In this document: in pieces, positions 1 through 39,768 of the stretch
Layout: every line of letters begins with the position of its first letter
How positions within the stretch are numbered: position 1 is the first letter of the stretch
Origin: a virus
Length of the DNA: 39,768 nucleotides
IMG/VR virus record: IMGVR_UViG_3300020039_000041
Reading direction: 5' to 3' (one strand)
The notes under the pieces: generated by a model
The model's database searches: none
What the model was told of the DNA's origin: nothing
Seen by the model: only the letters and a program-made list of their open reading frames with translations
Position numbers and translations under genes: made by a program

Positions 1-99
1 AACCGCGTTTGTCGAGGAATCGTCGTCGACGCGGCCGGGAATCAAACGCAACAATTAAACCTCTTTGACGTATGAAACAGGAAACAATGACGGCGGCCG
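1..99. repeat. Terminal direct repeat, copy 1 (identical to 39670-39768)
   Basis: The first 99 nt (aaccgcgtttgtcgagg...gacggcggccg) recur exactly as the last 99 nt. The repeat carries the methyltransferase 3' end (stop 73-75) and the VRR-NUC ATG (72), so the ORFs close across the junction. Confidence 0.9.
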
Positions 100-635
100 A
101 ATACCTCGCGTTTATGTCGCAAAATTTCCCCGGACACCGCGAGGGCGAGAACATCCCCGGGAAACGCGCCCCGAAAGAATCCCCGGTCGACGTCGTCGAC
201 AAGTTCCTCGCCGGGAAACGTACTCGCCGGACAAAGGCCGCCGCGCAACTGTGGACCGAGGACAAGGACCGCAAGAAACCCGGACACGAGGAATCGCAAT
301 TGCAACAACTTTGCGTCGCGTGGTTCCGGTCCGAGTTCCCGGCAATCGCCCCGTTGCTTATCGCGGTTCCCAACGCCGCCCGGAGAAACGCCCGGACGGG
401 CGCAATCCTCAAACGCGAGGGACTCACCGCCGGGGTCGCGGATTTAATCCTCCTCGTCGGCCGGGGCGAATATCATTCCCTTTGTATCGAAATGAAAACC
501 CACCGCAAGGGTTCCGGGCAATCCGACAAACAAATCGAATGGGAACAGGTCGCCGAGGAAAACGGCAACAAATACGTTGTTTGCCGCGACCTCGAGGAAT
601 TCAAAATTACCGTCCTCAATTACTTATTTCCGTAA
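72..635 (+). CDS. VRR-NUC domain nuclease
   Basis: 187 aa. Contains a PD-(D/E)xK-like core, GVADLILL...CIEMKT, preceded by LCVAWFRSEFP...IAVPNAARRN, as in VRR-NUC proteins. The ATG overlaps the methyltransferase stop (ATGA). Confidence 0.75.
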   Translation: MKQETMTAAEYLAFMSQNFPGHREGENIPGKRAPKESPVDVVDKFLAGKRTRRTKAAAQLWTEDKDRKKPGHEESQLQQLCVAWFRSEFPAIAPLLIAVPNAARRNARTGAILKREGLTAGVADLILLVGRGEYHSLCIEMKTHRKGSGQSDKQIEWEQVAEENGNKYVVCRDLEEFKITVLNYLFP

Positions 636-713
636 CAATGAACAACAATTTCGGGTTCCGCGCCGCCGTTGAAAATGCGACCCTGTGGACCCTCAAACAA
701 AAAGTATTGCACA

Positions 714-1037
714 ATGAAAAAGAAACTCCCGAACCAAACACCCGACAAACGAATCGAACCCCGGTCCCGGTTCATACAGGTAACGCCGCCCCCGGTGAGA
801 ACATCCGAGAACGACCCGTTCATTGACCGACTCCGCCGATTGTGGGAGGCCGCCCGAGAACACGACCAACACGTAACCGCGCAAACGGTTCAAGATATGT
901 TATTGAGTTACAAGGCGTTAAGCAATCGACACAAACGACGGGCGTTCCGCCTCGCGGCCGAGGGTCCCCTCCAAAAACTCGAGAAACCGTATTTCGACGA
1001 CGTAATCGAGGCCCTCGACGAGGACGACGACGAGTAA
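714..1037 (+). CDS. Hypothetical protein with an acidic C-terminus (alternative start 669)
   Basis: ORF 669-1037. Codon usage becomes genome-typical from ATG 714 (MKKKLPNQ...). Ends in DEDDDE. Confidence 0.6.
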   Translation: MKKKLPNQTPDKRIEPRSRFIQVTPPPVRTSENDPFIDRLRRLWEAAREHDQHVTAQTVQDMLLSYKALSNRHKRRAFRLAAEGPLQKLEKPYFDDVIEALDEDDDE

Positions 1038-1055
1038 TATATGTTTTTACGAATT

Positions 1056-1090
1056 GGTGTGTATTTTGTACACACCTTTTTGTAACTTTG
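1056..1090 (+). promoter_or_regulatory. Late promoter P1: dyad GGTGTGTA-N5-TACACACC followed by a TAACTTTG -7 box. The dyad plus T-run can also act as terminator for the upstream gene.
   Basis: The hairpin arms are 1056-1063 and 1069-1076, followed by a T-run at 1077-1081, and the -7 box is at 1083-1090. The terS ATG follows at 1120. The same dyad recurs at 11762. Confidence 0.6.
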
Positions 1091-1119
1091 CCGTGTGGAA
1101 CAATCAATCAGTTGTGACA

Positions 1120-1779
1120 ATGGACCCCAAGAAAAACACAAAGTCGGCCAAACATCACGCGCCGTCGGCGGCCCTCCTCCGGGAGGAACGCCTCCCCGTC
1201 GTGTCGAAATACAAGTTGCGCCGAAAGTCGTTCCGGCAAATAATCCCCCTCGTCGAAAAGGAAACCGGGCAAAAGGTGTCCGTCCAAACAATCAAAAGGG
1301 ATTGGGACCTTTGCCTCGAACGTTGGCGGGAGGAATCCGCGCAATCGACGAAACAGGCAATCGACGAGGCCGTCGCCGAGTGTGAACAGGTTATCGACGA
1401 ATTGTGGCAACTGTACGAGGATTCCAAGAAAAAGAAAACCCGAACGACGAAAAAGGTTCGCAAGAATCACACGGAAATAAACGATTTCGGTATTCCGAAA
1501 CTCGGTAAACCAATAACCCCGGTCGCGACGTCCTCGGAGGACGGGACCGTTACGGATTCCCAAATCGGGGACGTTCGAATCCTCGCCGAAATACGGGCGT
1601 GGGAGGAACGCCGGGACAAACTCCTCGGACTCCAAACCGCGAGGGTCGATATAACCTCCGGAGGAAAGACATTCACCGGGTTTTCGTCCGTTATCCCGGA
1701 CGTCCCGGGAATTGTCGAGTATTGCGCCCGGATTGACGCCGAAAGGGAACAACGGGAACGGGAATCGAACGGGGAATAA
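1120..1779 (+). CDS. Putative terminase small subunit
   Basis: The ATG at 1120 (MDPKKN) lies within ORF 1054-1779. Has an HTH-like N-terminus (SFRQIIPLVEKETGQKVSVQTIKRDW), a coiled-coil middle, and sits directly upstream of terL. Confidence 0.55.
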   Translation: MDPKKNTKSAKHHAPSAALLREERLPVVSKYKLRRKSFRQIIPLVEKETGQKVSVQTIKRDWDLCLERWREESAQSTKQAIDEAVAECEQVIDELWQLYEDSKKKKTRTTKKVRKNHTEINDFGIPKLGKPITPVATSSEDGTVTDSQIGDVRILAEIRAWEERRDKLLGLQTARVDITSGGKTFTGFSSVIPDVPGIVEYCARIDAEREQRERESNGE

Positions 1780-1794
1780 TACAGGCCGCGACAA

Positions 1795-3126
1795 ATGGAA
1801 TCGACGCAACCAAAATACAACGCAAAACAACTCCTCGCGTTTCATTACCTCAACGACCCGAACATCCGGTTCGTTGCGTACGGCGGCGCGGCCGGAGGCG
1901 GCAAATCGTGGCTCGGTTGCGATTGGTTACTCCGGTGTTGTTGGGCGTTCCCCCGGACCCGTTGGTTCGTCGGCCGAAACAACATCAAGGATTCCCGCGA
2001 GTCCGTCCTTGTCACGTTCAAAAAGGTTGCGGACTCGTACGGGTTCGTCGATTACCGACTCAACGAGGACGGAATCAAGTTCAAAAACGGTTCGGAAATA
2101 ATCCTCCTCGATTTGACGTTCTATCCGAAAAAGGACCCAATGTTCGAACGCCTCGGTTCAAAGGAATTCACCGGGGGTTGGATTGAGGAGGGCGGCGAGG
2201 TTCATTACCTCGCGTTCGAGGTTCTCAAGTCCCGAATCGGGCGACACCTCAACGTCGAGTACGGCCTCGAACCGAAAATGTTAATCACCTGTAACCCTAA
2301 AAAAAATTGGTTGTACACCCAATTTTACAAGCCGTTCAAGGCCGGGACCCTCGACAAGGATTGCGCGTTCATACAGGCCCTCGTATATGACAACCCGTTC
2401 GTATCGGCCGATTACATCCGGACCCTCGAGTCAATCAAGAATCGCCAAACCCGGTTGCGCCTGTTGTCCGGTTGGTGGGAGTACGAGGGGAACGTTAACT
2501 CCCTCGTCGATTACGACGCAATACTCGACACGTTCACGAACCCGGTTCAACCGTCCGGGTTGCGCCGTATATCCGCCGACCTTGCGACCCGGGGCCGGGA
2601 CAAGTTTATCGCGTGGAAATGGAATGGTCTTGTCGTCCGGGTTGGAATCAAACTCGACAAGGCGAATTCGAAAGAAATTGAGGATTCCCTCGCGGACCTC
2701 TCCCGGTCGTACGGCGTCGGCCGTTCCCAAATCGTCGCGGACTCCGACGGCCTCGGGGATTACCTTTCCTCGTACCTCGTCGGGATTACCGAGTTTCACG
2801 GCGGGGAACGGGCGTACAACAAGCAATATTACAACCTCAAATCGGAATGCGCGTTCAAACTTGCGGAACTCATAAACAACCGACAAATACACATTGATTG
2901 CGACGACCCGGAGGAACGGGAACGAATCGCCGAGGAACTCGAGGCGTGTTTAGTCGCCCACGACATCGACGCGGACACCTCGAAAAAACGCCTCATTGAA
3001 AAGACGGAACAAAAAAAGATTCTCGGACACTCCCCGGACTATTTCGACGGACTCAATATGGGAATGATATATTACATTCGGCCGCAAGTCCGAGGGGCGA
3101 GGGTCCACGTGTCGAAACTTAATTAA
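1795..3126 (+). CDS. terL: Terminase large subunit
   Basis: 443 aa. Walker A is YGGAAGGGKSW, Walker B-like is GGWIEEGGE, and the C-terminal nuclease region contains ADLATRGRD and VADSDGLG. Confidence 0.92.
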   Translation: MESTQPKYNAKQLLAFHYLNDPNIRFVAYGGAAGGGKSWLGCDWLLRCCWAFPRTRWFVGRNNIKDSRESVLVTFKKVADSYGFVDYRLNEDGIKFKNGSEIILLDLTFYPKKDPMFERLGSKEFTGGWIEEGGEVHYLAFEVLKSRIGRHLNVEYGLEPKMLITCNPKKNWLYTQFYKPFKAGTLDKDCAFIQALVYDNPFVSADYIRTLESIKNRQTRLRLLSGWWEYEGNVNSLVDYDAILDTFTNPVQPSGLRRISADLATRGRDKFIAWKWNGLVVRVGIKLDKANSKEIEDSLADLSRSYGVGRSQIVADSDGLGDYLSSYLVGITEFHGGERAYNKQYYNLKSECAFKLAELINNRQIHIDCDDPEERERIAEELEACLVAHDIDADTSKKRLIEKTEQKKILGHSPDYFDGLNMGMIYYIRPQVRGARVHVSKLN

Positions 3127-11824: not shown

Positions 11825-13039
11825 ATGGCAATTCTCAAAATTTACAACCCAATTGTTGCGGACGAGGAACGACTCGACCTCCTGTGGTTTTGCGGAATTG
11901 ACGGTGTGTCCTTTTCATCGGTCGACGAATTCATCCAATCAGTCCCGGCCGAGGACGATACAATCGACCTCCGGATTCATTGTCCGGGAGGCGACGTCAC
12001 CGAGGGTTGGGCGATTACGGACAAACTCCGGGCGACCGGGAAAACGATAATCGCGACAATCGAGGGACAATGCGCGTCAATGGCAACAATCATCCTTTGC
12101 GCCGCGTCGGTTCGCCGGGCCGCCCCTCACGCCTCGTTACTCATTCACGACCCCTACATTCCCGAGTACACCCTCGCGGGCGCGTACCACGCCGAGGACC
12201 TCGAACGTATCGCCGCCGACCTCAAGGTCGAACGCGAGAAAATGTTGTCCTTTTACGTGGAACGTACCGGGGCCGACCGCGACGTCCTCGACGCCCAAAT
12301 GAACGCGGGAACCTATTTCGGACCGGAAAAGGCCCTCGAACTCGGGTTCATTCACGAAATAACCGCGCCGAAATCGGCCGAGGCAATCGGCGAACGCCGT
12401 ATGACGGCGGAGGAATGGAACGCACATAATCCCAAAAACCAAAATAATATGTCAAAAGAAACCAAAAAGTCCGCAATCGCAACCGCGTTCGCGGCCCTCG
12501 CAAAGGCCCTCGGCCTCAACGCCGAGGTTAAAGAGGAAAAGGTCGCGTACGACCTCAACACCGCCGACGGCGGAACAATCACAATCGACAAGCCGGAGGG
12601 CGAGGACCCCGCCGTCGGCGACTCCGCCTCCCCGGACGGTGAGCACAAAATGCCCGACGGAAAGACAATCGTTGTCGAGGACGGTGTAATTACCGAAATC
12701 CGCGACGCCGAGGACAATTCCGGCGACAATGACGACGACGATAACGACGACGACGAAACCGCAAAGGCCCTCGCCGACGCAAACAATCGTATCGCCGAAC
12801 TCGAGGCCGAACTTGCAACGGCAAAGGCCGCCGCAAAGACCCCCGAGGACCTCGAAATCCTCAACCTCGTAACCGTCGCGGGCGGTATTAAGTGGTTGAA
12901 ATCCGCAAAATCCAACTACAAACCCGCCGCCGGAAACAAGGAACCCGGCAAGAAAGGCGGCAAAGAGGGCGAGGTCAAGGAATCCCTCGTCGCAAAACGC
13001 CTCCGCGCCCTCGAGGAAAAGAACAAGGGCGGCGAATAA
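11825..13039 (+). CDS. Prohead serine protease (ClpP/S14 family) fused to a scaffold-like C-terminal domain
   Basis: 404 aa. ClpP-like motifs are HCPGGDVTEGWAI, QCASMATIIL (Ser) and LLIHDP (His). The C-terminal half is an acidic, Ala/Lys-rich coiled coil (DNDDDDNDDDE, AELEAELATAKAAAK). Confidence 0.85.
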   Translation: MAILKIYNPIVADEERLDLLWFCGIDGVSFSSVDEFIQSVPAEDDTIDLRIHCPGGDVTEGWAITDKLRATGKTIIATIEGQCASMATIILCAASVRRAAPHASLLIHDPYIPEYTLAGAYHAEDLERIAADLKVEREKMLSFYVERTGADRDVLDAQMNAGTYFGPEKALELGFIHEITAPKSAEAIGERRMTAEEWNAHNPKNQNNMSKETKKSAIATAFAALAKALGLNAEVKEEKVAYDLNTADGGTITIDKPEGEDPAVGDSASPDGEHKMPDGKTIVVEDGVITEIRDAEDNSGDNDDDDNDDDETAKALADANNRIAELEAELATAKAAAKTPEDLEILNLVTVAGGIKWLKSAKSNYKPAAGNKEPGKKGGKEGEVKESLVAKRLRALEEKNKGGE

Positions 13040-15706: not shown

Positions 15707-16918
15707 ATGAACATCAAAAACACCAAAAAACCCGAAACGCGAATCGACGTACGGTATCTTTCCTCCCTCGGAATCAAGACGTACGGCGCGGACAACCTGT
15801 ATCCGCAAGAATTACACGACATCGTGTCGGCGTCGTCTTGCGGCCGTACCTGTTTGGAACGCCGTATAACTTACATTGAGGGGAACGGCCTTGCGTCGCA
15901 ATCGTTGTCCGATTTCATTTGTAACACGGGCGGGGAAACGGTGGACGACGTTCATTCCCTTTTGTCGGCGGATTGCGGCGAATACGAGGGTATCGCAATA
16001 CACGTCAATTATAATATCGCCGGAAACATCGTTTCCCTCGCGCAAATGCCGTTCGAGTGTGTACGCCTCGAGGAGGAGGACGAACACGGGATTATTTCAC
16101 ACGTTATTTTCCACCCCGATTGGAGGGGGAAAAAGACCCGGAACGGAAAGTCCGTCAAGGTCGACAAACAGTCAATCGAAATTTTCCCCGTATTCAATCC
16201 GGACCCCGAAATCGTACAGGCCCAAATCGTCGCGGCCGGGGGAATCGAGTTTTACAAGGGACAAGTCTTGTATATTTCCCGGGCCGGACGCCTCCGGTAT
16301 CCAATCCCGGCGTACGACACCGTTTTAACGGATATGTCGACCGACGAGGGATTGTCGAACGTTTCCAACCGTAACGTACGAAACAATTTCCTCGCGGGTG
16401 GTATCCTTTGGGTCAAGAGGGGGCAAATGCGCCCCCTCCCTCCCGAGGGTTCCGAGGTATTCGACGGAAAGGACCAACCCGAAAACAACGGGGATTTCGA
16501 CGAGTTTATCGAAAGTATCGAGTCGTTGCAAGGCGACACGAATTCGTGTAAAATCGCCGTTTGCGAGGGCGAGGTCGACGAGGAGAAACCCGAGTTCATT
16601 TCCTTTGCGCCGAAAAACTTTGACAAGGAATTCGACTCGACGAACAAATCGGTCGTCGAAAAGATATACGCCGCGTTCAATCAAGAAATGTTCGCACGAC
16701 TCCGGACGGGTTCGATTGGATTCTCCGGGGACCTCGCAAACGACGTGAAAAAGGAATATTGCGAACAGGTCACGAAATACCAACGTATGTTGACCCGCGC
16801 GTACAACCTTATTTTCTCGCATTGGGAACCCGACGACCTCCTCCCGTTCAACGGGCCGGACGACATTAAGATTGAACCCCTCGTTAAATCAGTAACCCAA
16901 AACCCCGACGCGGAATGA
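15707..16918 (+). CDS. Putative portal protein
   Basis: 403 aa. It is the largest otherwise unassigned head-module ORF and has an acidic segment. The call rests on size and position only. Confidence 0.4.
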   Translation: MNIKNTKKPETRIDVRYLSSLGIKTYGADNLYPQELHDIVSASSCGRTCLERRITYIEGNGLASQSLSDFICNTGGETVDDVHSLLSADCGEYEGIAIHVNYNIAGNIVSLAQMPFECVRLEEEDEHGIISHVIFHPDWRGKKTRNGKSVKVDKQSIEIFPVFNPDPEIVQAQIVAAGGIEFYKGQVLYISRAGRLRYPIPAYDTVLTDMSTDEGLSNVSNRNVRNNFLAGGILWVKRGQMRPLPPEGSEVFDGKDQPENNGDFDEFIESIESLQGDTNSCKIAVCEGEVDEEKPEFISFAPKNFDKEFDSTNKSVVEKIYAAFNQEMFARLRTGSIGFSGDLANDVKKEYCEQVTKYQRMLTRAYNLIFSHWEPDDLLPFNGPDDIKIEPLVKSVTQNPDAE

Positions 16919-20820: not shown

Positions 20821-20865
20821 GGCGCGGCGGTTCGTCCGCTTGACGGCGACCGTCCGCGCCTTTTC
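20821..20865 (+). terminator. GC-rich extended hairpin plus T-run downstream of VR1 (a terminator and possibly the DGR target-recognition hairpin)
   Basis: ggcgcgg (20821-27) pairs with ccgcgcc (20854-60). Inner pairings are cggt/accg and cgtc/gacg. tttt follows. Confidence 0.65.
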
Positions 20866-20879
20866 ATATTTCGGAAATA

Positions 20880-21335
20880 ATGTCACATCCAAAAACAAGA
20901 CTCTCGATAATTGACAAACTCGACGTCCTCGGGAAAGAATACCGATTCTCGTTGAAATTGTATCCGACGGTCGAGAATTTCGACCGGAAATTCAAGTTCA
21001 CAATCGGCGACCGGATTATCGACGCCGAGGAAAGGGCCGAGGAACTTATTATCGACGCAAACAGGACGACCGACCCCCTCAAGGCGGCCGGGTTCCTCCA
21101 CGACGCGTTGACCGAGTTTGAGAAAATCGAAACGAAACTCCGGAGGGCAACCGCCCCCGGCCTGTTATCGCCGGATACCGAGGGATTGTTATTCGTGGAT
21201 TTGGACGACATAAGGGGCGACGCGAAACATTGGAGGTCCTACTTTTTGAAAGAGTACAAACGACAACAAAAAGAGGGTCGGAGTTCCGGAGGGGAACAGG
21301 AACACCCCGCCGGGAGTGAACCCACAATGAATTGA
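20880..21335 (+). CDS. avd: DGR accessory variability determinant (Avd-like)
   Basis: 151 aa, predicted helical. FSLKLYPTVENFDRKFKFTIGDRIIDAEERAEELIIDANR...LHDALTEFEKIETKLRRA fits the four-helix-bundle Avd / 23S-IVS-protein pattern. It sits in the canonical position between the target gene and TR. Confidence 0.6.
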   Translation: MSHPKTRLSIIDKLDVLGKEYRFSLKLYPTVENFDRKFKFTIGDRIIDAEERAEELIIDANRTTDPLKAAGFLHDALTEFEKIETKLRRATAPGLLSPDTEGLLFVDLDDIRGDAKHWRSYFLKEYKRQQKEGRSSGGEQEHPAGSEPTMN

Positions 21336-21383
21336 TTATTTGAGAAAAGGTCCGGCCCCTCTCATTTAGACGGGTCGGAAAAC

Positions 21384-21492
21384 TTGCGAGTATAACAGTA
21401 ACAACGCGTTCATCTTTAACGGCAACAACGGCAACGTGAACAACAACAACAAGTACAACACGAACACGGTTCGTCCCGTTTCCGAATTTCTC
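21384..21492 (+). repeat. DGR template repeat (TR)
   Basis: A-rich and built of AAC codons in the VR reading frame (...aacaacggcaacgtgaacaacaacaacaagtacaacacgaac...). I count about 34 adenines. It shares the invariant 3' block acggttcgtcccgtttccg with both VRs. Confidence 0.9.
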
Positions 21493-24960: not shown

Positions 24961-25115
24961 TGTGGTGCTGGGAACGACCGAACGGTTGCAAGGTCGGGAT
25001 TTTGTAAGTTGTTGAGAATTCCGGCGAAATCGGCCTTTGTGCAATGTCTTGCAAGGTTTCCACGGCGAGGATTGCAACGCCGGGATTGCGCCCCATTGCA
25101 ATAATCCGCAAACAG

Positions 25116-25158
25116 GTTGACGAAAATTCGGGTTTTTGTCAACGGTTTTGTATCTTTG
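25116..25158 (+). promoter_or_regulatory. Integrase promoter region: imperfect palindrome followed by a TATCTTTG -7 box
   Basis: gttgacgaaaa-N6-tttttgtcaac (one mismatch) at 25116-25143. The -7 box is at 25151-25158 and the ATG at 25179. Confidence 0.5.
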
Positions 25159-25178
25159 CGGGGTACAAATTGGAAAAT

Positions 25179-26510
25179 ATGCCTACAATCAAAAAATCGT
25201 TGTCGTCAAAGGTTGACGGCGACGGAAAGTCCGAAATCCTGTTGCGGTTCTCCGGAGGACGGGACGCCGTGTTCCGCGTCAAGTCCGGAATCCGGATTCC
25301 TCCGGCCCGGTGGAACGTCAAGGAATCCCGGATTATCATTCCCCGTTTGGAAACATCGGAACAACGCGACCTCGTCAAGGCGGCAAAGGAACTCGACGAC
25401 GTTTGCAACCTGTTAATCGAGGCGTACACGGCCGCCGACAAAACGACCGTGTCGCGGGAGTGGTTCGCCGACATCCTCGACCGATACCGACACCCGGAGA
25501 AAAACACGCCCTCCGGAGGGGATTTTTTCGGCGCGTTCGAAAAGTTCCTCAGCGACAACGAGTCCTCCCGGCCCCGGGAAAATCATTTCAAGGTATTAGA
25601 ACGACAACTCCGGCGGTTCGAACTGTATTCCGGCCGGGAGTGGGAACTCGACACCGTGTCGGCCGACGACCTCGCCGCGTTTAAGGATTTCCTCGTCAAC
25701 GAACACGCGATATTCAAGGACAAGAAATTCGAATTCATATACACGGCCGTTCCGGAGTCACGGACGCCGGGTCCCCGTGGTTACAACGCAATCGGAAACT
25801 CGTTGCGCCTGTTCCGAACGTTTTTCAATTGGTGTATCAAACACCGTTTGACGACGAATTATCCGTTCCGGGAATACTCAATCGAGGCCCCGGTTTACGG
25901 AACCCCGTATTATATCACCCTCGAGGAACGCGAACGTATCGCCGGGGCGGATTTGTCCTCCCGGCCGCAAGTCGCGACACAACGGGACGTGTTCGTCTTT
26001 CATTGTTGTATCGGTTGCCGGGTCGGGGACCTGTTGCGCCTCACCCGGGCGAACATTATTGACGGCGCGGTCGAGTATATCGCCCGCAAGACATCCGGCG
26101 AACGCCCGGTAACAATCCGGGTCCCCCTCAACAACACCGCAAAGGAAATCCTCGAAAGATACAAGGATTTCCCCGGTCCCGGCCTATTGCCGTTCATATC
26201 CTCCCAAAAGTACAACGACGCAATTAAAACCGTGTTCCGCCTCGCCGGAATCGACCGGGTCGTTACGGTCCTCAATCCCCGGACCCGCCGGGAGGAACAA
26301 CGGCCGTTGTACGAAATCGCCTCGTCCCACCTCGCCCGGCGAACGTTCATCGGGAACCTATACAAACAAGTCAAGGACCCGAACCTCATTTCGTCCCTCT
26401 CCGGACACGTCGAGGGGTCGACGGCGTTTTACAGGTATCGCAACGTTGACGAACAAATGAAACGGGACCTCGTCCGATTGTTGGACGAACCCGTCAAACC
26501 GACGGAATAA
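25179..26510 (+). CDS. int: Tyrosine recombinase / phage integrase (Bacteroidota type)
   Basis: The ATG at 25179 (MPTIKKSL) lies within ORF 25044-26510. Catalytic-domain residues appear in CCIGCRVGDLLRL (Arg), SSHLARRTF (HxxR) and GHVEGSTAFYRY (Tyr). Confidence 0.92.
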   Translation: MPTIKKSLSSKVDGDGKSEILLRFSGGRDAVFRVKSGIRIPPARWNVKESRIIIPRLETSEQRDLVKAAKELDDVCNLLIEAYTAADKTTVSREWFADILDRYRHPEKNTPSGGDFFGAFEKFLSDNESSRPRENHFKVLERQLRRFELYSGREWELDTVSADDLAAFKDFLVNEHAIFKDKKFEFIYTAVPESRTPGPRGYNAIGNSLRLFRTFFNWCIKHRLTTNYPFREYSIEAPVYGTPYYITLEERERIAGADLSSRPQVATQRDVFVFHCCIGCRVGDLLRLTRANIIDGAVEYIARKTSGERPVTIRVPLNNTAKEILERYKDFPGPGLLPFISSQKYNDAIKTVFRLAGIDRVVTVLNPRTRREEQRPLYEIASSHLARRTFIGNLYKQVKDPNLISSLSGHVEGSTAFYRYRNVDEQMKRDLVRLLDEPVKPTE

Positions 26511-26784: not shown

Positions 26785-27147
26785 ATGGCAAAAGCAATGA
26801 CAACCCCCGCCCTCGAAAGGGCCGTCCGAGAACTCAACATTCAAATCGAGGAGTTCCGCCTCGAGTCAACCCCGGAAACCCCGGACGTCGAATTGTACGA
26901 GGACGCGAACACAACCCGCCGGGTTCGTCCGAATTTCAAATTATACCTCAACGGTAAAATGACGTGGACCGAGGACGGGCGAACCGAGGATTACGAACAT
27001 TTCGACGCGGACGACATCCGCGACACCCTCAAATTTTGGAGGGCCTGTTTGCGCCGCGCCCGCAAATATTGGGCAATGAACGTCGACACCCTCGACGCAA
27101 TCCAAAACGGCGAACGCGAGGACATTAACGACGAGGAGGACGAGTAA
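26785..27147 (+). CDS. Hypothetical acidic protein
   Basis: 120 aa. No motif recognised. C-terminus is DINDEEDE. Confidence 0.6.
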   Translation: MAKAMTTPALERAVRELNIQIEEFRLESTPETPDVELYEDANTTRRVRPNFKLYLNGKMTWTEDGRTEDYEHFDADDIRDTLKFWRACLRRARKYWAMNVDTLDAIQNGEREDINDEEDE

Positions 27148-27884
27148 TGGAATACCTCGGTTTCGCAACTCAATTTTTCACCCTTTGGGAGGTGTCCCGG
27201 GAGTCCGTAACCTATTACGGCCGCCCGGCAACCCGCGTCGTGTGTACGTTCATTAAAAACGTGTCAAAGGACGAACAGGTCGCCCGCGCAAAGTATCCGG
27301 ACGCGCCGTTCGACGCAACCCTCCGGGGTTGTCGTTCATTCTCCCGAGTCGAGGTCGAGAAATACGCCGACGACGTGTTCGCGTTCGGCAAGTACGCCGG
27401 GACGCCTGTTGCCGATTGCGGCGACCTCGGTTATTTGTTTTGGGTCCTCCCGCAACTCGACGACGCCCGGCGCGTTATCGCCGAGGACGTCCTTGTCAAC
27501 TCCGGCAAATACGGCCGTTACGGGGACAACATTGTCGCCGCCGAGGAACTCGCCGCAATCGAGGCCGAGGACGAATATATCGAGGGCGTCGTTTCCGGGA
27601 TTATCGAGTCCGGCCGGGCAACGGTCGAGGCGACGTCGAACATCCATTTCGAGGACGAATACACGTCCGCCGCAACCCACGGAATTACGTTGACGTGGAA
27701 CGCGGCCGACCTTGCGGAATACTATTACTCCGGTTGTACGTATTACCTCCCGAAACAGGGTGACAAGGCAAAACGAATCAAGGGAAAGACCCTCGAGGTT
27801 TCGGTCGCCGATTACAACGTCGAACAATTCCCGTTCGGGAAACGTCTTTCAATCCGCGTCGCCGGATTTCAACTCAAGAAATAA
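27147..27884 (+). CDS. Hypothetical protein
   Basis: 245 aa. The segment FGKYAGTPVADCGDLGYLFWVL faintly resembles DUF3820-like motifs. Not assignable. Confidence 0.55.
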   Translation: MEYLGFATQFFTLWEVSRESVTYYGRPATRVVCTFIKNVSKDEQVARAKYPDAPFDATLRGCRSFSRVEVEKYADDVFAFGKYAGTPVADCGDLGYLFWVLPQLDDARRVIAEDVLVNSGKYGRYGDNIVAAEELAAIEAEDEYIEGVVSGIIESGRATVEATSNIHFEDEYTSAATHGITLTWNAADLAEYYYSGCTYYLPKQGDKAKRIKGKTLEVSVADYNVEQFPFGKRLSIRVAGFQLKK

Positions 27885-27930
27885 ACCGCGTCCGGGCGGT
27901 TCCCGGGTAACGCACAAACAACAACGCATT

Positions 27931-28377
27931 ATGAACGCAAAACAACTCATTTTCAACAACGCGAACGGGGAATTCGACACCCTTATCGCAAACGGTTATT
28001 ATTTCGCCCGTTCCGAGGGTGGCGCGACCGATAACGCAACCCTCAAATTCGAGGCGGAACAGGCCGCAAACGCAAACCTTATCGTAATAGGCCGAGGCGA
28101 ACCCGCGACAAAGTATTATTTCGACCTCCGCGATTGTTTCAACGCGGTTGTCCGCCGGGAGGGGTTCGACATCGACGCCCGCCTCGAGTGGTTGTCACGG
28201 ACCGTCGACGAGGTGCGTTCCCGTTGCGAGAATATCGCGGAACATTATATCCCCGAGGAGGACACCGCCGAACACGACGAACTCGGGAGGATTTCCGTTC
28301 ACCTCGGACGCCTCGCAAAACGCCTCCACGACCTCGCCGGGATTTATACGCCCGTTCAACATTTCGACAATGATTAA
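27931..28377 (+). CDS. Hypothetical protein
   Basis: The ATG at 27931 (MNAKQLIF) lies within ORF 27712-28377. The upstream part of that ORF overlaps the previous gene and is discounted. Confidence 0.55.
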   Translation: MNAKQLIFNNANGEFDTLIANGYYFARSEGGATDNATLKFEAEQAANANLIVIGRGEPATKYYFDLRDCFNAVVRREGFDIDARLEWLSRTVDEVRSRCENIAEHYIPEEDTAEHDELGRISVHLGRLAKRLHDLAGIYTPVQHFDND

Positions 28378-28594
28378 GACATCCAACAGGGGCGGCCGCC
28401 GGGAGGGTTCCGGCCGCCGCCCGACAAAGACACCCCGCGAGAACGTGACGTTCCGGGTATCGCCGGAAACAAAGTTCAAAATCGCCGCCCTCCGCCGGGC
28501 CGGGTTCCGCCTCGGGGAACAGGTCGACGCAATGGTCGAGGGCCTGTACGACACAATTTGTTCGGACGCCGGGGTCGGCCCGAACGATTTGTAA
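28370..28594 (+). CDS. Small ribbon-helix-helix-like DNA-binding protein (putative)
   Basis: 74 aa, from ATG 28370 within ORF 28148-28594. Has a basic N-terminus (RGGRREGSGRRPTK) followed by NVTFRVSPETKFKIAALRRAG, a beta-strand plus helix pattern. Confidence 0.45.
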   Translation: MIKTSNRGGRREGSGRRPTKTPRENVTFRVSPETKFKIAALRRAGFRLGEQVDAMVEGLYDTICSDAGVGPNDL

Positions 28595-28595
28595 T

Positions 28596-28625
28596 AAAAC
28601 CCGTCGGAATCCCGACGGGTTTTTC
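28596..28625. terminator. Bidirectional rho-independent terminator between convergent operons
   Basis: aaaa-cccgtcgg-aatc-ccgacggg-ttttt. Confidence 0.8.
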
Positions 28626-28701
28626 GTACCTTTGCAACGTCAATGAATTTGTAAGACATCCAATTTGTACCGGACCCGTTCCGCCGCGAGGCGCGACGGG
28701 T

Positions 28702-29046
28702 TCATTCTTTCCCGGTGTTCGATTCCGCCCCGGATTTGTGCGATTCCGGGCCGTTTTCGTTCGATTTCCCGGGGTTTTTGTTCGATTTGGTCCGGAACAT
28801 CGTTCCTGTTCCCAAAAGCAACCACGCGGGAGAAACGCCGTATTTGCGGCAAAGGTACGACAACCACGCCGGGCGGAGTATTGACCGCCCCGGTTCCCGG
28901 CGTTGTTTTAGGAAATTCGGTCGGTCAATCCCGGCCTCCTCGCAAAACCCCGACGTCGTGGTTCGGCCGTCCTCGACGAGGACCGCGAACGCCTCAAAGA
29001 ATCGGACCGTTACCGGGTCCCCTGTTTGGAATCCGTCGTTGTTCAT
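28702..29046 (-). CDS. CI-type HTH DNA-binding protein 2
   Basis: 114 aa, from the ATG at 29046. Contains FCEEAGIDRPNFLKQRR...WLSYLCRKYGVSPAWLLLGTGTMF and a low-complexity KSNxNPG tail. ATGA-coupled to the lipoprotein gene. Confidence 0.65.
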   Translation of the reverse strand: MNNDGFQTGDPVTVRFFEAFAVLVEDGRTTTSGFCEEAGIDRPNFLKQRREPGRSILRPAWLSYLCRKYGVSPAWLLLGTGTMFRTKSNKNPGKSNENGPESHKSGAESNTGKE

Positions 29047-29339
29047 TGTTTCGCCTGTTTGAGGTAATACATCCGTTCGGCCTCGTCCCGGTCCGATTTG
29101 GTCCGGCGGATTTCCGCCTCGACCGTGGACCGTTCCTCCATTAACCGGAGGACCTCGTCGTCCGGCGTTCCGGCCGGGAGGGATTCCGACAAGTTGAACA
29201 GGGAATCCCGGCGCGACTCGAGGGACTCCAACAGGGCCGAAAACGCGGCGTATTCGGGCGTTTTCTCGAACGACGGGGATTTCCCCCGGCAAGACATCAA
29301 AAGCGCGGCAACGGCCGCAAGAATCGCAAATCCTCTCAT
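29043..29339 (-). CDS. Small lipoprotein in the lysogeny operon (superinfection-exclusion candidate)
   Basis: 98 aa, from the ATG at 29339. Has a signal peptide plus lipobox (MRGFAILAAVAALLMSC) followed by a helical, charged region. ATGA overlaps at both ends. Confidence 0.6.
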   Translation of the reverse strand: MRGFAILAAVAALLMSCRGKSPSFEKTPEYAAFSALLESLESRRDSLFNLSESLPAGTPDDEVLRLMEERSTVEAEIRRTKSDRDEAERMYYLKQAKQ

Positions 29340-29782
29340 TTTCCGTCGGTCCTGTGGAACGGGGTTCCGGTTATATGTTCGATTATCGCAATAAGACGGT
29401 CGATTTGTGAAAGGTGGACCGCCGATTGTCGTTGTTCCTCCCGGAGGTACGACATCACCTCCGGCGACATAATGGAAACCTTTTGATTCCCGAAATTGGT
29501 GTAATCCCCCTCGACGTGGACGGGGAACGGGTCGGACGGTTCCGACCTCCGGAACATTGGCCCCTCGCCGGACTCCAACCAATCCGGGGAAATCTCCGGG
29601 AACGCCTCGAGGATTTTTCCGAACAACTTTTTCGGAACGTCGATTTGTTCGCGGACGATTTCCGAAATTGTCGCCTTGTCGGAACCCACAATTTCGGCAA
29701 AGTGGGATTGATTCCGGATTTTCCGGGAATTTTTGAGTTCGGCGATTAACTCCGCAACTCTTTGATTTTTAGACACATCCAT
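29336..29782 (-). CDS. CI-like phage repressor (HTH, no S24 peptidase domain)
   Basis: 148 aa, from the ATG at 29782 (MDVSKNQRVAELIAELKNSRKIRNQSHFAEIVGSDKATISEIV...ISPDWLESGEGPMF). Divergent from the early operon. Confidence 0.75.
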   Translation of the reverse strand: MDVSKNQRVAELIAELKNSRKIRNQSHFAEIVGSDKATISEIVREQIDVPKKLFGKILEAFPEISPDWLESGEGPMFRRSEPSDPFPVHVEGDYTNFGNQKVSIMSPEVMSYLREEQRQSAVHLSQIDRLIAIIEHITGTPFHRTDGK

Positions 29783-29799
29783 ATTTGTACAAAAATTTC

Positions 29800-29836
29800 T
29801 CCGAAAATAATGTTCGGAAAATTTGTTTGTTCCGAA
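29800..29836. promoter_or_regulatory. Operator cluster: three TTCCGAA/TTCGGAA half-sites
   Basis: tccgaa (29800-05), N7, ttcggaa (29813-19), N10, ttccgaa (29830-36). Located in the cI leader / divergent control region. Confidence 0.55.
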
Positions 29837-29877
29837 CAAAATGTTTAGTTTTGCAATCGGTTAACGATTTCACACCG

Positions 29878-29885
29878 CAAAGGTA
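29878..29885 (-). promoter_or_regulatory. TACCTTTG -7 box for the lysogeny operon (minus strand)
   Basis: The + strand reads caaaggta, which is tacctttg on the - strand, about 95 nt upstream of the cI ATG. Confidence 0.5.
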
Positions 29886-29953
29886 CGAACAATTTAACCC
29901 GCCGTAAATGGCAAATATATGTAATTTTTGAACGAAACACAAACAAATTGGAT

Positions 29954-30781
29954 ATGACCCTCGAACGAAAAGTCGATTTTGCAATCAAACTGTTGCGGTC
30001 AATTCCGACCGACGACGGCCCGATTGAATTGTCGTATTCCGGCGGCAAAGACTCCGACGTTATCCTCGAACTCGCCCGTATGTCGGGAATTCCTTTCGAG
30101 GCGATTTACAAGAATACGACAATCGACCCTCCGGGGACCCTCTCGCATTGCCGGGAACAAGGGGTTACAATCCTCAAACCGAAACTCACATTTTTACAAC
30201 TCGTCGAGAAAAAGGGGACGCCGTCCCGGTTCGCGCGTTTTTGTTGCGAGGCCCTCAAGGAATACAAGGTGTACAACCGCGCAATACAAGGAATTCGCCG
30301 CGCCGAATCCACCGCCCGGGCGAAACGATACCACGAACCCGAAATTTGCCGGGTTTACTCCGCAAAGGAAAAGGTCCGCGTTTACCTCCCTATACTCGAA
30401 TGGACGGACGAGGACGTCGCCCGGTTCATTGAGGAACGCGGTATCAAGTGCGCCCCGCTTTATTACGACGAGTCCGGCCGTTTCCACGTCGAACGCCGCC
30501 TCGGTTGTATTGGTTGCCCCCTTGCGGCCGACAACGGCCTCGCCGATTTCAAACAGTATCCTAAACTCCTCAAGCAAGTAATCGAGGCGAAAAAGCGGTT
30601 TTACGAAACCCACCCGAACGCCGGGAAAACCTTTGACCGGAACGTTTACAACGGATTGTATTTTCAATTCTTTTGCCGGAATCTCGACGACTACCGGGTC
30701 GCAATAGGGGGGGGTCTATTTCCGGAACAAGCAATTGACACGCAACAATTTTTGTCCGAGTATTTCGGAATCGAGTTATAA
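29954..30781 (+). CDS. PAPS/APS-reductase-family PP-loop enzyme with a CC...CxxC Fe-S motif
   Basis: The ATG at 29954 lies within ORF 29948-30781. The PP-loop is LSYSGGKDSDV, and the cysteines are ARFCCEALK and LGCIGCPLA. Confidence 0.8.
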   Translation: MTLERKVDFAIKLLRSIPTDDGPIELSYSGGKDSDVILELARMSGIPFEAIYKNTTIDPPGTLSHCREQGVTILKPKLTFLQLVEKKGTPSRFARFCCEALKEYKVYNRAIQGIRRAESTARAKRYHEPEICRVYSAKEKVRVYLPILEWTDEDVARFIEERGIKCAPLYYDESGRFHVERRLGCIGCPLAADNGLADFKQYPKLLKQVIEAKKRFYETHPNAGKTFDRNVYNGLYFQFFCRNLDDYRVAIGGGLFPEQAIDTQQFLSEYFGIEL

Positions 30782-30806: not shown

Positions 30807-31322
30807 ATGAAACACACATTTTCAATTTTCATCGTGAACCCCGCAAACGGGGAGTTCGTAACCCTCGCCGATTGGTCGAAAACCGAGAACCCCGCCTCCG
30901 CCGAATTCGTCGCGATTGTCCGCGAGGATAAATCCGGAATCATTATCGCAAGGGACCCCGTCAAGGTTGACGGCGAAATCAATTTCGAGTGGAAAAAGGC
31001 CGTCGAACTCGCAAAGGCGTTCAAACCCGCGACGGACGTTGCCGCCCTCGCCGTCGAGGGATTCCGCCTCCCGGACCGCCGCGAGGCCCTCGACATTTAC
31101 GACGCCCGTTTTCAAGGACTCGACGACGCCCTCGCCCTTATCGGCGGAACCCCTGTTCATACAGGCGACGCCCGTTGGATATGGACCGAGGACGAGGACC
31201 CGGACCCCGAGTATAACAGTAACTACGCGTTCCTCTTTAACGGCGGCAACGGCTACGTGGGCTACCACTACAAGTACTACGCGGGCCCGGTTCGTCCCGT
31301 TTCCGCTTTTCTCCCGTTTTAG
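30807..31322 (+). CDS. DGR target protein 2 (small DUF1566/CLec-like protein carrying VR2)
   Basis: 171 aa. FRLPDRREALDIYDA...RWIWTEDEDPDPEYNSNYAFLFNGGNGYVGYHYKYYAGPVRPVSAF. I see no obvious signal peptide or lipobox. Confidence 0.85.
   Translation: MKHTFSIFIVNPANGEFVTLADWSKTENPASAEFVAIVREDKSGIIIARDPVKVDGEINFEWKKAVELAKAFKPATDVAALAVEGFRLPDRREALDIYDARFQGLDDALALIGGTPVHTGDARWIWTEDEDPDPEYNSNYAFLFNGGNGYVGYHYKYYAGPVRPVSAFLPF
31208..31313 (+). repeat. DGR variable region VR2 (remote)
   Basis: Aligns to TR 21387-21492 with 17 mismatches, all at TR adenines. Confidence 0.9.
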
Positions 31323-35594: not shown

Positions 35595-36344
35595 ATGAAA
35601 TTACACGTAATCGCGACCGGGTCGTCCGGTAACTGTTACGTCCTCGAGGGGACAACGTCCGCCCTCGTTATCGAGGCGGGCGTATCCCCGGAAAAGGTGT
35701 TCCAACGGGTCCGTATGTCGACCCGCAAAATCGCCGGGGTTATCATTACCCACGAACACGGCGACCACGCGGGATTTATACACCGTTGGTTGGTCCTCGG
35801 GTTCCGGGTCTATATGTCCGCCGGGACCCGGGAGGCCCTCCGCCTCAACGATTCCCGCCTCGTCGACATCCTCAAGGCGTGGACCGCGTATTCCCTCGGC
35901 GCGTTCTCGGTCCGGCCGTTCCCGGCCGTCCACGACGCCGCCGAACCCCTTTCGTTCATTATCGACTCGGAGGAATCCGGGCGAATCCTGTTCGCGACCG
36001 ATACCGGGCGAATCGGGTATTCGTTCCGGACGGGTAACATCCGACACCTCGTCGTCGAGGCGAATTACTCCGATTCCCTCATTAACGACGGCCTCAACCG
36101 GGGAACCCTGTTCCCGGCCCTTGCAAAACGTATCCGGGAGAATCATTTATCCCTCGAACGTTGCCGGGAGTTCGTACAGGAACACAACACCGCCGCCCTC
36201 GAGAACGTCGTTTTGATTCATTTGTCGGGCGACAACGCCGACCCGGGGATATTCCGCGATACAATCGCGAAAACGGCCCCGTACGCGAACGTTTGTGTCG
36301 CGGTCAAGGATTTAGTCGTCCCGCTTAATAAACTCTCAATATAG
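35595..36344 (+). CDS. Metallo-beta-lactamase-fold hydrolase/nuclease
   Basis: 249 aa. Has the HxHxDH motif VIITHEHGDHAG. Confidence 0.8.
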   Translation: MKLHVIATGSSGNCYVLEGTTSALVIEAGVSPEKVFQRVRMSTRKIAGVIITHEHGDHAGFIHRWLVLGFRVYMSAGTREALRLNDSRLVDILKAWTAYSLGAFSVRPFPAVHDAAEPLSFIIDSEESGRILFATDTGRIGYSFRTGNIRHLVVEANYSDSLINDGLNRGTLFPALAKRIRENHLSLERCREFVQEHNTAALENVVLIHLSGDNADPGIFRDTIAKTAPYANVCVAVKDLVVPLNKLSI

Positions 36345-37571: not shown

Positions 37572-37583
37572 CAACACAAAACA

Positions 37584-38003: not shown

Positions 38004-38012
38004 TCCCGGCGT

Positions 38013-38273
38013 ATGGAACAGGAACGGCGCAATTATAAGTTTGCCGAACAGGGCCGCCCGGACTCGGTCGTTCATACCACAATGGAACGGGCAATCGAAA
38101 TCGCCCGCGACCGAGTCCTCAACCGCCGGACCGAGGTTGTCCTTTCCGCCGAATGTCCGGTCGACTCCGGGCGGTTTATCCGCCTCGGAACGCACGTTTA
38201 CCTCCCCGAACGTGACGGGGAACGTTTTATCCTCTCAATACCGAAAATCCCGAAAAACATTATCGAATTATGA
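38013..38273 (+). CDS. Hypothetical protein
   Basis: 86-aa ORF. Confidence 0.5.
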   Translation: MEQERRNYKFAEQGRPDSVVHTTMERAIEIARDRVLNRRTEVVLSAECPVDSGRFIRLGTHVYLPERDGERFILSIPKIPKNIIEL

Positions 38274-38449
38274 AAGTCTTGTTAATCATTCTCGCAATCC
38301 TCGCGGTCGTCGTTGGACTGTTTGTTTTCTCGATTATGTACGTCGCCCTCGTCCTGTACGTGGAGAATCTCCCGGACAACGATAAGGAACAGGGCGACGA
38401 GTATTTCCTCGGCCGACGCCGGGAGGACATCGAGAACGACAACGTATGA
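38270..38449 (+). CDS. Small single-pass membrane protein (59 aa; below the ORF-track cutoff)
   Basis: Translated by hand as MKVLLIILAILAVVVGLFVFSIMYVALVLYVENLPDNDKEQGDEYFLGRRREDIENDNV. ATGA overlaps at both ends. Confidence 0.5.
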   Translation: MKVLLIILAILAVVVGLFVFSIMYVALVLYVENLPDNDKEQGDEYFLGRRREDIENDNV

Positions 38450-38601
38450 ACAGGAAACCGCGCCGTTGCGACAATTGCCGATTCTCGGTCCCGTACACCC
38501 CGGGCGACGTCCTCGGGTGTTTGTCCCGTGGGTGTATCACGGACCCGGAGAACAGTTGCGAGGCGCATAAATTCAAACCCGGTAAATCCAAAAGCAAATG
38601 A
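38446..38601 (+). CDS. Small Cys-rich (zinc-ribbon-like) protein (51 aa; below the ORF-track cutoff)
   Basis: Translated by hand as MNRKPRRCDNCRFSVPYTPGDVLGCLSRGCITDPENSCEAHKFKPGKSKSK. ATGA overlaps at both ends. Confidence 0.45.
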   Translation: MNRKPRRCDNCRFSVPYTPGDVLGCLSRGCITDPENSCEAHKFKPGKSKSK

Positions 38602-38861
38602 AAGATTCAACAGTTACCCCCCCCCGAATTCAAATTGAAATCACCCCGGAGGAACTCGACACCCTTTGCGCGGGCCTCGGCAAGTTGCGGAAAAAGATTG
38701 TCGACCGGATTAAATGCAACCGTCGACACCTCGCAACCCTCGAGGAAACCCGCGAGTCCGCCCGGGTTGCGGCCGCGATTAACCGACATATCCGACACAA
38801 TACCGAACGCGTCGAGGAGGTCGACGCCCTGTTACTCAAACTAAACAACATCGAACAATGA
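38598..38861 (+). CDS. Hypothetical protein
   Basis: 87-aa ORF, ATGA-coupled. Confidence 0.5.
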   Translation: MKDSTVTPPRIQIEITPEELDTLCAGLGKLRKKIVDRIKCNRRHLATLEETRESARVAAAINRHIRHNTERVEEVDALLLKLNNIEQ

Positions 38862-39085
38862 CCGTTAATGAACTAATACAACAACTCCAATCCCTCCCGG
38901 AAAACGAACGGGAATACCCCGTCGCCCTATTGGGGAATGATTACACAATCGTTCGCCCCCTGTGGGTTGGGTTTCAAAATATCCGGTACGATTCCGACGA
39001 GGTCCCGGCCGACGTCGCGAATCTTGCGTTCCCGTCCGGTTGCCCGGGCGAGGTATTTGTCCCTTTTGTCCTTATCCGCAAATGA
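38858..39085 (+). CDS. Hypothetical protein
   Basis: 75-aa ORF, ATGA-coupled. Confidence 0.5.
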   Translation: MTVNELIQQLQSLPENEREYPVALLGNDYTIVRPLWVGFQNIRYDSDEVPADVANLAFPSGCPGEVFVPFVLIRK

Positions 39086-39744
39086 ACCCGCGTTCCGAAA
39101 TATACAACGTCGATTGCCTCGAGTATATGCGAACACTCCCGGACAACGCGTTCGACCTCGCCGTTGTCGACCCGCCGTATGGAATCAACGCGGGAAAAAT
39201 GACAATGGGAATCGGAACGCGCCGGACGTATTCTCGCGACAAAGATTGGGACGCCGGAGTCCCCGGCCCGGAGTATTTCGAACAGTTATTCCGCGTGGCC
39301 CGTGAACAAATAATTTGGGGCGGAAATTACTTTCAACTCCCGTTGTCTGAGGATTGGATTGTTTGGGACAAAATGAATTACGGACGGTCCTTTTCCGAGG
39401 CGGAATTCGCGTGGTGTTCGATACATCGAAAAATACGCGTTTTCCGGTTCCGTACGACAACACCCGTCGAGGGCGGCAAGATTCACCCGACACAAAAACC
39501 CGTGGAGTTGTACACGTGGATTTTGTCAAATTATGCACGGGGGGGGTCACGGATATTCGATTCTCACCTCGGGTCCGGGGCCTCAAGAATCGCCGCGTAT
39601 CAACTCGGAATGGATTTCGTCGGTTGCGAATTGGACCCGGATTATTTCCGCGCCTCGGACGAGTGGTTCAACCGCGTTTGTCGAGGAATCGTCGTCGACG
39701 CGGCCGGGAATCAAACGCAACAATTAAACCTCTTTGACGTATGA
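39082..39744 (+). CDS. DNA methyltransferase, beta-class N6A/N4C (DPPY)
   Basis: 220 aa, from the ATG at 39082 within ORF 38962-39744. Motif IV is VVDPPYG, followed by HPTQKP, then motif I, FDSHLGSGAS. This motif order (IV before I) is that of the beta class. Confidence 0.88.
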   Translation: MNPRSEIYNVDCLEYMRTLPDNAFDLAVVDPPYGINAGKMTMGIGTRRTYSRDKDWDAGVPGPEYFEQLFRVAREQIIWGGNYFQLPLSEDWIVWDKMNYGRSFSEAEFAWCSIHRKIRVFRFRTTTPVEGGKIHPTQKPVELYTWILSNYARGGSRIFDSHLGSGASRIAAYQLGMDFVGCELDPDYFRASDEWFNRVCRGIVVDAAGNQTQQLNLFDV

Positions 39745-39768
39745 AACAGGAAACAATGACGGCGGCCG
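39670..39768. repeat. Terminal direct repeat, copy 2 (identical to 1-99)
   Basis: Exact 99-nt match to the window start. Confidence 0.9.

Follow-up and report, generated by a model that had tools for sequence, protein, structure and literature searches.

Genome-wide loss of restriction-site-like words in a temperate rumen Bacteroidales phage

We analyzed the 39,768-bp IMG/VR record IMGVR_UViG_3300020039_000041 (the window, meaning the whole stretch at its full length), which is the complete circular genome of a tailed phage with a GC content of 54.9%, and found that a large vocabulary of short words with the form of restriction sites has been removed from it. The sequence of a related locus, L001, runs across the window's end into its start, and the same phage is present on five or more independent contigs, each 39.7-40.1 kb long. 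Nearly all genes, with about 94% of the coding sequence, lie on the + strand, and the reading frames were intact in 51 of the 51 cases checked. The features that bear on the missing words are the following.

24961-25043, + strand: phage side of the attachment junction (att core); identity to an integrated copy begins at 24961
25044-26510, + strand: tyrosine integrase with Pfam Phage_integrase and SAM-like domains
28702-29782, - strand: helix-turn-helix (HTH)/repressor-like gene block, the sole block on this strand
20693-20798, + strand: variable repeat VR1 of a diversity-generating retroelement (DGR), at the C-terminus of a 438-aa Lcl_C/lectin-like protein
31208-31313, + strand: variable repeat VR2 of the DGR, 10 kb away, at the C-terminus of a 171-aa Lcl_C-like protein
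21387-21492, + strand: template repeat of the DGR, from which VR1 and VR2 differ almost only at template adenines
21436-22788: DGR reverse transcriptase (Pfam RVT_1)
39082-39744, + strand: orphan beta-class N6/N4 DNA methyltransferase (Pfam PF01555, E = 9e-14; PHROG 67 'DNA methyltransferase', E = 8e-39)

The 155-kb JGI contig Ga0139311_1000834 contains an integrated copy with an identical integrase protein at the copy's edge, and the tyrosine integrase and this integrated copy together establish that the phage is temperate. The att core agrees in sequence with the integrated copy's junction; no tRNA gene was found at the att site. Next to the integrated copy lies a SusD/RagB-type gene, an indication that the host belongs to the Bacteroidota.

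Exact counts over the 39,768 bp gave zero for GATC, AGCT, CATG and CTAG, as had been claimed in an initial annotation made by reading the letters, and also zero for GAAG, CTTC and (on the + strand) GATG, which that list of four had missed, so that seven tetramers in total are absent. Base composition predicts about 150 copies of each of the first four. A more demanding expectation was obtained by permuting synonymous codons genome-wide in 300 replicates, with proteins and codon usage kept; under this codon null GATC, AGCT, CATG and CTAG are expected 142, 53, 71 and 11 times, and the lowest counts in any replicate were 111, 37, 53 and 4, respectively. Re-encoding with the codon usage of the related Alistipes clade gave expectations of 174, 103, 76 and 46. 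For GAAG, CTTC and GATG the permutation expectations are 254, 182 and 101, and across the 300 shuffles the count was at least 37 for the zero tetramers other than CTAG, whose codon-aware expectation is low because CTA and TAG are themselves rare. The absences are therefore far beyond chance and reflect codon context rather than codon usage alone; codon usage as an explanation is ruled out by the permutation null. The words have been removed almost wholly by synonymous codons chosen according to the neighboring codon, and the initial annotation's proposal of context-dependent synonymous choice is borne out by the return of the words on permutation. It had further observed that ATG never follows C, which holds but is incomplete, as the base before ATG is A 148 times and T 86 times and never C or G.

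The same outcome extends to longer words. About 180 restriction specificities were scored, and the result is bimodal, with about 45 at 0-0.1x of expectation and the rest at about 0.7-2x. More than 20 further classical restriction sites are at zero. The purged words (0-0.1x) include, with their expected counts, CCWGG (40), GCWGC (37), GTCTC/GAGAC (48/39), CCATC (49/24), CCTTC (54/59), RCCGGY (72), RGCGCY (33), CCWWGG (32), CMGCKG (47), CCGCGG (34), GCGCGC (15), GGCGCC (11), ATCGAT (9) and CAY-N4-RTG (18). CCATC is the site of BccI. Slightly above zero are GDGCHC (2 observed, 73 expected), CTNAG (2 and 38) and GGYRCC (3 and 37). Words that are not avoided, at about 0.7-2x, include TCGA, ACGT, GTAC, CCGG, GGCC, CGCG, CTCGAG, GAATTC and GTCGAC. 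The avoided words have the form of restriction sites, being palindromes, Type IIS words and gapped palindromes. Several statements of the initial annotation are refined by these counts. Its description of the other palindromes as common fails for TGCA, with only 55 copies (0.37x of what base composition predicts, 0.82x under the codon-aware null); TCGA, which was said to occur in nearly every 60-nt line, starts in 50% of them; and its suggestion that the targets of several 4-bp nucleases had been purged agrees with the restriction-site vocabulary found here and understates it, since dozens of words of 3 to 12 bp are involved.

Among the gapped words the clearest case is GA-N6-TC, with 3 copies observed against about 168 expected. 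GA-Ng-TC is normal at every other gap from 1 to 18, and because only gap 6 is depleted the word behaves as a single target. Such gapped patterns are the most diagnostic part of the vocabulary because composition and codon effects do not act at one spacer length. A scan of gapped 3+3 patterns, covering about 10,000 patterns with an expectation of at least 10, found 32 with zero counts against 0.055 expected. When the patterns explained by GA-N6-TC are set aside, further bipartite words are still missing or almost missing in either orientation: TCA-N6-TC (0 of 58 expected) with GA-N6-TGA (0 of 26), CCA-N8-TC (0 of 20) with GA-N8-TGG (0 of 23), and GCC-N5-GGC (0 against about 19-25 expected). GCC-N6-TG, GCC-N5-GTT, GCC-N6-TTC and ACG-N-AG are also at or near zero. 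The three surviving GA-N6-TC sites, for which no strand applies, are each conserved in related strains.

15944-15953: surviving GA-N6-TC site GACGACGTTC
16714-16723: surviving GA-N6-TC site GATTGGATTC
20210-20219: surviving GA-N6-TC site GAAATTCCTC

Three pairs of trinucleotides are depleted as well. Under the codon null, observed and expected counts are 36 and 394 for AGC, 24 and 311 for GCT, 76 and 216 for CTG, 127 and 314 for CAG, 26 and 136 for TAG, and 72 and 233 for CTA, so that the AGC/GCT, CAG/CTG and TAG/CTA pairs stand at 8-40% of expectation, and this holds across codon boundaries too. The surviving copies are found almost only in AAGC/GCTT and ACAG[GT]/[AC]CTGT contexts. A 5' A also exempts other words: ACAG, ACATC and ACA-N6-TC are normal, while B-CAG, S-CATC and B-CA-N6-TC are near zero. 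As a separate observation, ACAGG (85 against 29 expected) and CCTGT (57 against 15) are enriched 3-4x, with the other CAG/CTG contexts near zero; most copies lie in nnA-CAG-Gnn or nnC-CTG-TTn codon contexts without a longer consensus, and codon choice may have used these words as an escape route, in which case they would not be a motif. Two other origins of the trinucleotide depletion were considered. Decay of AGC/GCT by a C-to-T deaminase is unlikely, as the products AGT (232) and ACT (257) are rare too, and avoidance of CRISPR protospacer-adjacent motifs, a conceivable cause for the trinucleotides, cannot account for palindromes or gapped palindromes.

Four words are missing from one strand only. 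On the + strand GATG is found 0 times against 98 copies of its reverse complement CATC, ATGAG 0 against 24, GACTT 0 against 29 and GTCAT 0 against 17, and this orientation bias is kept across relatives and is balanced in the Alistipes clade. The minus-strand gene block at 28702-29782 separates DNA strand from transcript: there the + strand still carries no GATG, ATGAG or GACTT against null means of 3.4, 2.7 and 3.2 (P ~0.01 each, moderate evidence as the block spans 1.1 kb only), and the reverse complements are at the null level, with CATC, which is GATG on the sense strand of these genes, present 5 times against 3.2 expected. The 2.1 kb of non-coding sequence is also at zero for the one-strand words. 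Since the + strand absences persist in minus-strand genes, the bias tracks the DNA strand and not the transcript, which speaks against a cause in RNA or translation and fits nucleases that need two inversely oriented sites.

The initial annotation had proposed comparing the counts with those of related phages and the host. The host DNA read was one flank of the integrated copy, L081:1-9900 (9.9 kb), which holds 11 GATC, 12 AGCT, 18 CATG and no CTAG. The flank is normal for GAAG, CTTC, GATG, CCWGG, CCATC, CCTTC, RCCGGY and GA-N6-TC (51 copies). AGC, GCT, CTG and CAG occur at about 10-20 per kb in the flank against 0-3 per kb in the prophage, about a ten-fold difference, and the CpG density of the flank is half that of the prophage. 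The word pattern switches abruptly at the att junction, window position 24961. Relative to a Markov expectation, GATC (0.31x), CATG (0.41x) and AGCT (0.44x) are the most depleted palindromes of the flank after CTAG, and this partial depletion is compatible with a host lineage exposed to such enzymes itself. The sister clade of Alistipes prophages, at about 70% identity in the terminase large subunit (TerL), lacks CTAG only and has the other words at normal counts. Because CTAG is at zero in the host flank and in every relative of the Alistipes clade, its absence is a lineage-wide bias, and the other missing words are phage-specific; the phage-specificity implied by the initial annotation thus applies to GATC, AGCT and CATG, which are present in the flank, and not to CTAG.

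The close relatives of the window phage come from rumen samples. The same zeros are found in L001-L007, L084 and L163-L176, which comprise at least 10 independent assemblies diverged down to 78% nucleotide identity and drawn from JGI, ENA, Logan and GenBank metagenome-assembled genomes (MAGs) of cattle, goat and other ruminant samples; their being common to independent diverged assemblies excludes an assembly artefact or a recent accident. The purge is thus specific to this phage lineage, has been kept over deep divergence, and ends at the host junction. Single components of it come and go. L006 (IMGVR_UViG_3300031998_002701, 5.5 kb, 78% nucleotide identity) has GATC at a normal level (14 copies) while every other zero persists, a case in which one avoidance pressure alone has been gained or lost in nature. 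L030, at 71% TerL identity, lacks AGCT, CATG, CTAG and CCWGG, has little GAAG, CTTC, AGC and GCT, and retains GATC, GATG and GA-N6-TC. The avoidance pressures are phage-specific, heritable and modular. More distant Bacteroidales prophages of the same terminase family (L136, L138, L117, L143 and L144) lack other palindrome sets, drawn from CCGG, CGCG, GCGC, GGCC, ACGT, GATC and CTAG. No tetramer is missing from the first 15 kb of 69 of the 122 related loci of at least 15 kb, and the window clade misses 7-14; multi-site avoidance seems to be common in this group of temperate phages.

Protein composition may also have been affected. Methionine makes up 0.99% of residues against 1.8% in orthologous proteins of the Alistipes clade, with glutamine and histidine lower too, and at aligned positions the respective methionine counts are 72 and 110. 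Where both outgroups share a methionine, it has been lost 7 times in this lineage, compared with 2 losses in the other. The lower methionine content suggests, though not conclusively, that avoidance of words containing ATG, CAG and CAT has altered proteins.

The purge is relaxed only where another process imposes sequence, namely in the att core and in the continually rewritten variable repeats of the DGR. The att core holds the sole CTGG (24968) and the sole GCTG (24967) of the genome, VR1 holds the sole CCAG together with a rare GTAG, and VR2 holds both copies of GCTA. The rarest surviving tetramers total 19 copies, and 6 of these fall within the att core and the DGR repeats, which together span 401 bp or 1% of the genome (P = 2.5e-8, for regions chosen post hoc). 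In strains L163 and L168 the VR1 region has GCAGC, AGCT and three GCGCGC, and VR2 of L163 has two GCAGC; the forbidden GCAGC, AGCT and GCGCGC of these strains lie within the variable repeats, and one further GCTGC (L163:4902) lies outside them. The DGR as a whole spans window positions 19482-22788 and 30807-31322 and has one template repeat and two variable repeats.

The methyltransferase gene that the initial annotation had cited as complementing the purge is present at 39082-39744. The protein gives distant matches to the structures of CcrM, M.MboIIA and DpnA and falls far below the NCBIfam equivalog cut-offs (61 bits against 830 for CcrM), and its target is not readable from its sequence. 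GANTC, which had been described as very frequent, is present only at 1.28x (234 copies against 183 expected), and the excess is carried by GAATC and GATTC; it may reflect codon choices that avoid GATC, and a link between the methyltransferase and GANTC is unsupported.

Other identifiable genes encode a BspA-type leucine-rich-repeat protein, an amidase, an SMC/Rad50-like ATPase, RecT and a DnaD-like replication protein, in addition to those listed here.

1795-3126: terminase large subunit
11825-13039: ClpP-like prohead protease
72-635: VRR-NUC domain protein
35595-36344: metallo-beta-lactamase-fold protein
29954-30781: PAPS-reductase/ATP-pyrophosphatase-fold protein (PHROG 424)

The PAPS-reductase-like protein shows only weak similarity to DndC-type sulfurtransferases, and from this similarity a role in DNA modification is conceivable. 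Its gene lies in an accessory region 3' of the integrase (window 26785-30781) that is mosaic relative to L163, L165, L170 and L171: between strains, a 297-aa gene takes the place of the genes of 120 aa and 245 aa, and a 130-aa gene that of the PAPS-reductase-like gene. The forbidden words are as scarce in the alternative accessory modules, for example that of L163, as in the core genome. A degenerate GC-rich tandem array of the GCCGCC type, with offsets of 18 and 42 nt, is located at 19025-19194 within a 360-aa gene (18387-19469) and probably encodes an Ala-rich low-complexity stretch. A megablast search with 25 kb of the window against 50,697 phage records gave no match, and the nearest isolate by TerL, Bacteroides phage BS-TP3, has 55% identity only. 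Three phage-only contigs of the clade (L083, L084 and L085) have been binned into MAGs labeled Prevotellaceae, Oscillibacter and Clostridiales, probably as a practical consequence of their aberrant tetranucleotide signature, and host calls from those bins are unreliable.

We consider it highly likely that long-term purifying selection against the recognition words of a very large number of sequence-specific host nucleases has molded the genome of this temperate, DGR-bearing rumen Bacteroidales phage. The phage would encounter these enzymes while moving among rumen Bacteroidales strains. Type II enzymes would account for the loss of palindromes and Type IIS words in both orientations, and gapped Type II, Type IIB or Type I-like enzymes for the loss of the bipartite words GA-N6-TC, TCA-N6-TC, CCA-N8-TC and the GCC-N5/6 group. 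Type III or Type ISP enzymes, which need two inversely oriented sites, may be responsible for the loss in one orientation of GATG, ATGAG, GACTT and GTCAT. The phage methyltransferase is a candidate for protecting some site that has not been purged. CTAG would be excepted from this scheme as a lineage-wide bias, missing from the host and all relatives.

Other explanations were weighed against selection by host nucleases. A compositional or codon bias of the whole lineage, by which host and phage family would both avoid the words with no phage-specific restriction pressure, is suggested by the complete lack of CTAG in the host flank and all Alistipes-clade relatives, by the position of GATC, CATG and AGCT as the next most under-represented palindromes of the flank, and by the high CpG content common to the Alistipes clade; we regard it as very unlikely, and for every word but CTAG it is refuted, because the flank is normal for the other purged words with an abrupt change at the junction, codon permutation gives back 50-250 copies per word, and the sister clade has normal counts. 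Somewhat less improbable, and still unlikely, is that the one-strand absences act at the level of RNA or translation, through avoidance of internal AUG starts in the Shine-Dalgarno-less translation of Bacteroidota or of the sites of an mRNA-cleaving toxin. With about 94% of the coding sequence on the + strand, the DNA strand can hardly be told apart from mRNA sense, ATG occurs in two of the four words and its complement CAT in GTCAT, out-of-frame ATGs inside + strand genes are only 53 of the 234 + strand ATGs, and the low methionine content would agree with such a cause. The minus-strand block nevertheless keeps the + strand absences and carries GATG on its sense strand at 5 against 3.2, the 2.1 kb of non-coding sequence is also devoid of the words, and the overlapping CATG and GATC are palindromic and so must be targets at the DNA level.

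Some of the purged words, for example GA-N6-TC, could instead be targets of a nuclease of the phage itself, directed against host DNA, or of a site-specific DNA-binding factor. The normal frequency of GA-N6-TC in the host flank, the nuclease-like VRR-NUC and metallo-beta-lactamase-fold proteins, and the conservation of the three surviving sites between strains would be in keeping with this possibility. In the searches run, however, neither protein resembles a sequence-specific restriction endonuclease, a prophage with such an activity would endanger its own host, and one or two words at most could be covered in this way rather than dozens; we judge it, too, very improbable, marginally more so than the lineage-wide bias. 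Such clean zeros also resemble designed, recoded sequence or systematic base-calling and assembly errors at methylated or otherwise modified motifs. This last alternative is effectively refuted by the same zeros in independent assemblies from several ruminants, one of which is an integrated copy replicated as host DNA, and by the intact reading frames.

Selection against host nuclease targets can be compared with known cases of restriction-site avoidance, which include T7 and other coliphages, the Bacillus phages SPO1 and phi29, and the staphylococcal phage K, which lacks GATC. In these classical cases, as here, short palindromic and Type IIS words are lost through synonymous changes, the loss is specific to phage versus host, and the set of words varies among relatives. 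The window phage differs in being temperate, in the far greater breadth of its purge (seven zero tetramers, three trinucleotide pairs and more than 20 sites), in purging bipartite and orientation-biased words also, and in a seemingly reduced methionine content. On every testable feature it belongs with restriction avoidance, as an extreme variant of a known strategy and not a new principle. Across thousands of phage-host pairs, one survey (Rusinov et al. 2018, PMC6286503) found complete site elimination less often in temperate phages, no avoidance of Type I or Type IIG sites, very rare avoidance of Type III sites and no systematic strand asymmetry in avoidance. In T7 all 36 sites for EcoP15I (CAGCAG) are in one orientation, which renders the phage refractory to this Type III enzyme (PMC3874151). 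The window phage likewise has asymmetric words that recur in one orientation and are missing from the other, with a bias that tracks the DNA strand; it differs in having four such words, the main one of 4 bp, and in that the enzyme is putative here, while in T7 experiments linked the bias to a defined one. Type II enzymes that recognize gapped palindromes of the 2+2 type include MwoI (GC-N7-GC) and BslI (CC-N7-GG), and the sites of XmnI (GAA-N4-TTC) and BsaBI (GAT-N4-ATC) are subsets of GA-N6-TC. GA-N6-TC resembles the MwoI and BslI sites in its two 2-bp half-sites, fixed spacer and dyad symmetry, although those sites themselves are not avoided in the window phage (0.82x and 1.4x, respectively). 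The rarity of CTAG in bacteria is well known, and Gelfand and Koonin (1997) and Rocha et al. (2001) reportedly described palindrome avoidance and CTAG rarity in bacterial chromosomes. The lack of CTAG in phage, relatives and host flank is of this kind, as is the mild depletion of GATC, AGCT and CATG in the flank; the depletion in the host flank is partial (0.3-0.45x) and confined to few palindromes, whereas in the phage it is complete and extends to many more words.

Several points weigh against selection by host restriction enzymes as the full account. The part played by cognate host restriction-modification systems is putative, being deduced from the words themselves, and the list of specificities scored was compiled independently of REBASE. 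The host is identified only to the level of Bacteroidota/Bacteroidales, from the SusD/RagB neighbor and the Alistipes and Rikenellaceae relatives, and an exact-protein look-up of the last prophage gene, made for the second host flank, returned phage-only contigs only, and one metagenome scan did not bring up the JGI contig; the host evidence therefore comes from a single 9.9-kb flank. We know of no characterized enzyme with GA-N6-TC specificity, and a literature search on this word (GANNNNNNTC) gave no restriction enzyme, the matches listed being mostly CRP/FNR-type operator sites. GATG, at 4 bp, is below the classical Type III site length of 5-6 bp, which weakens strict membership in that class. 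The near-loss of trinucleotides in almost every flanking context requires either very many overlapping specificities or a novel factor, and selection by host nucleases leaves this and the repeated exemption by a 5' A unexplained. The window phage is, finally, an outlier on all points of the survey described above and runs counter to the general trend.

A bolder extension is that the genome mirrors, as a near-complete negative, the restriction enzymes of rumen Bacteroidales. It would reflect at least one uncharacterized specificity, the 2+2 gapped palindrome GA-N6-TC, and several Type I- and Type III-like targets, and its trinucleotide depletion, which no known nuclease class accounts for, would indicate defense nucleases or some other DNA-sensing principle of about 3-nt specificity; we put this forward as a tentative possibility that is rather doubtful at present. 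The site-free backbone could guide the design of vectors or phages for Bacteroidales that resist genetic manipulation, and the list of purged words provides a testable prediction of restriction specificities in uncultured rumen Bacteroidales, GA-N6-TC among them. If selection by host nucleases is the correct explanation, the phage would rank among the most extreme examples in nature of escape from restriction by loss of sites, although it is temperate and such loss has been considered weak in temperate phages, and avoidance could reach bipartite and orientation-dependent targets, which the large survey held to be essentially not avoided.

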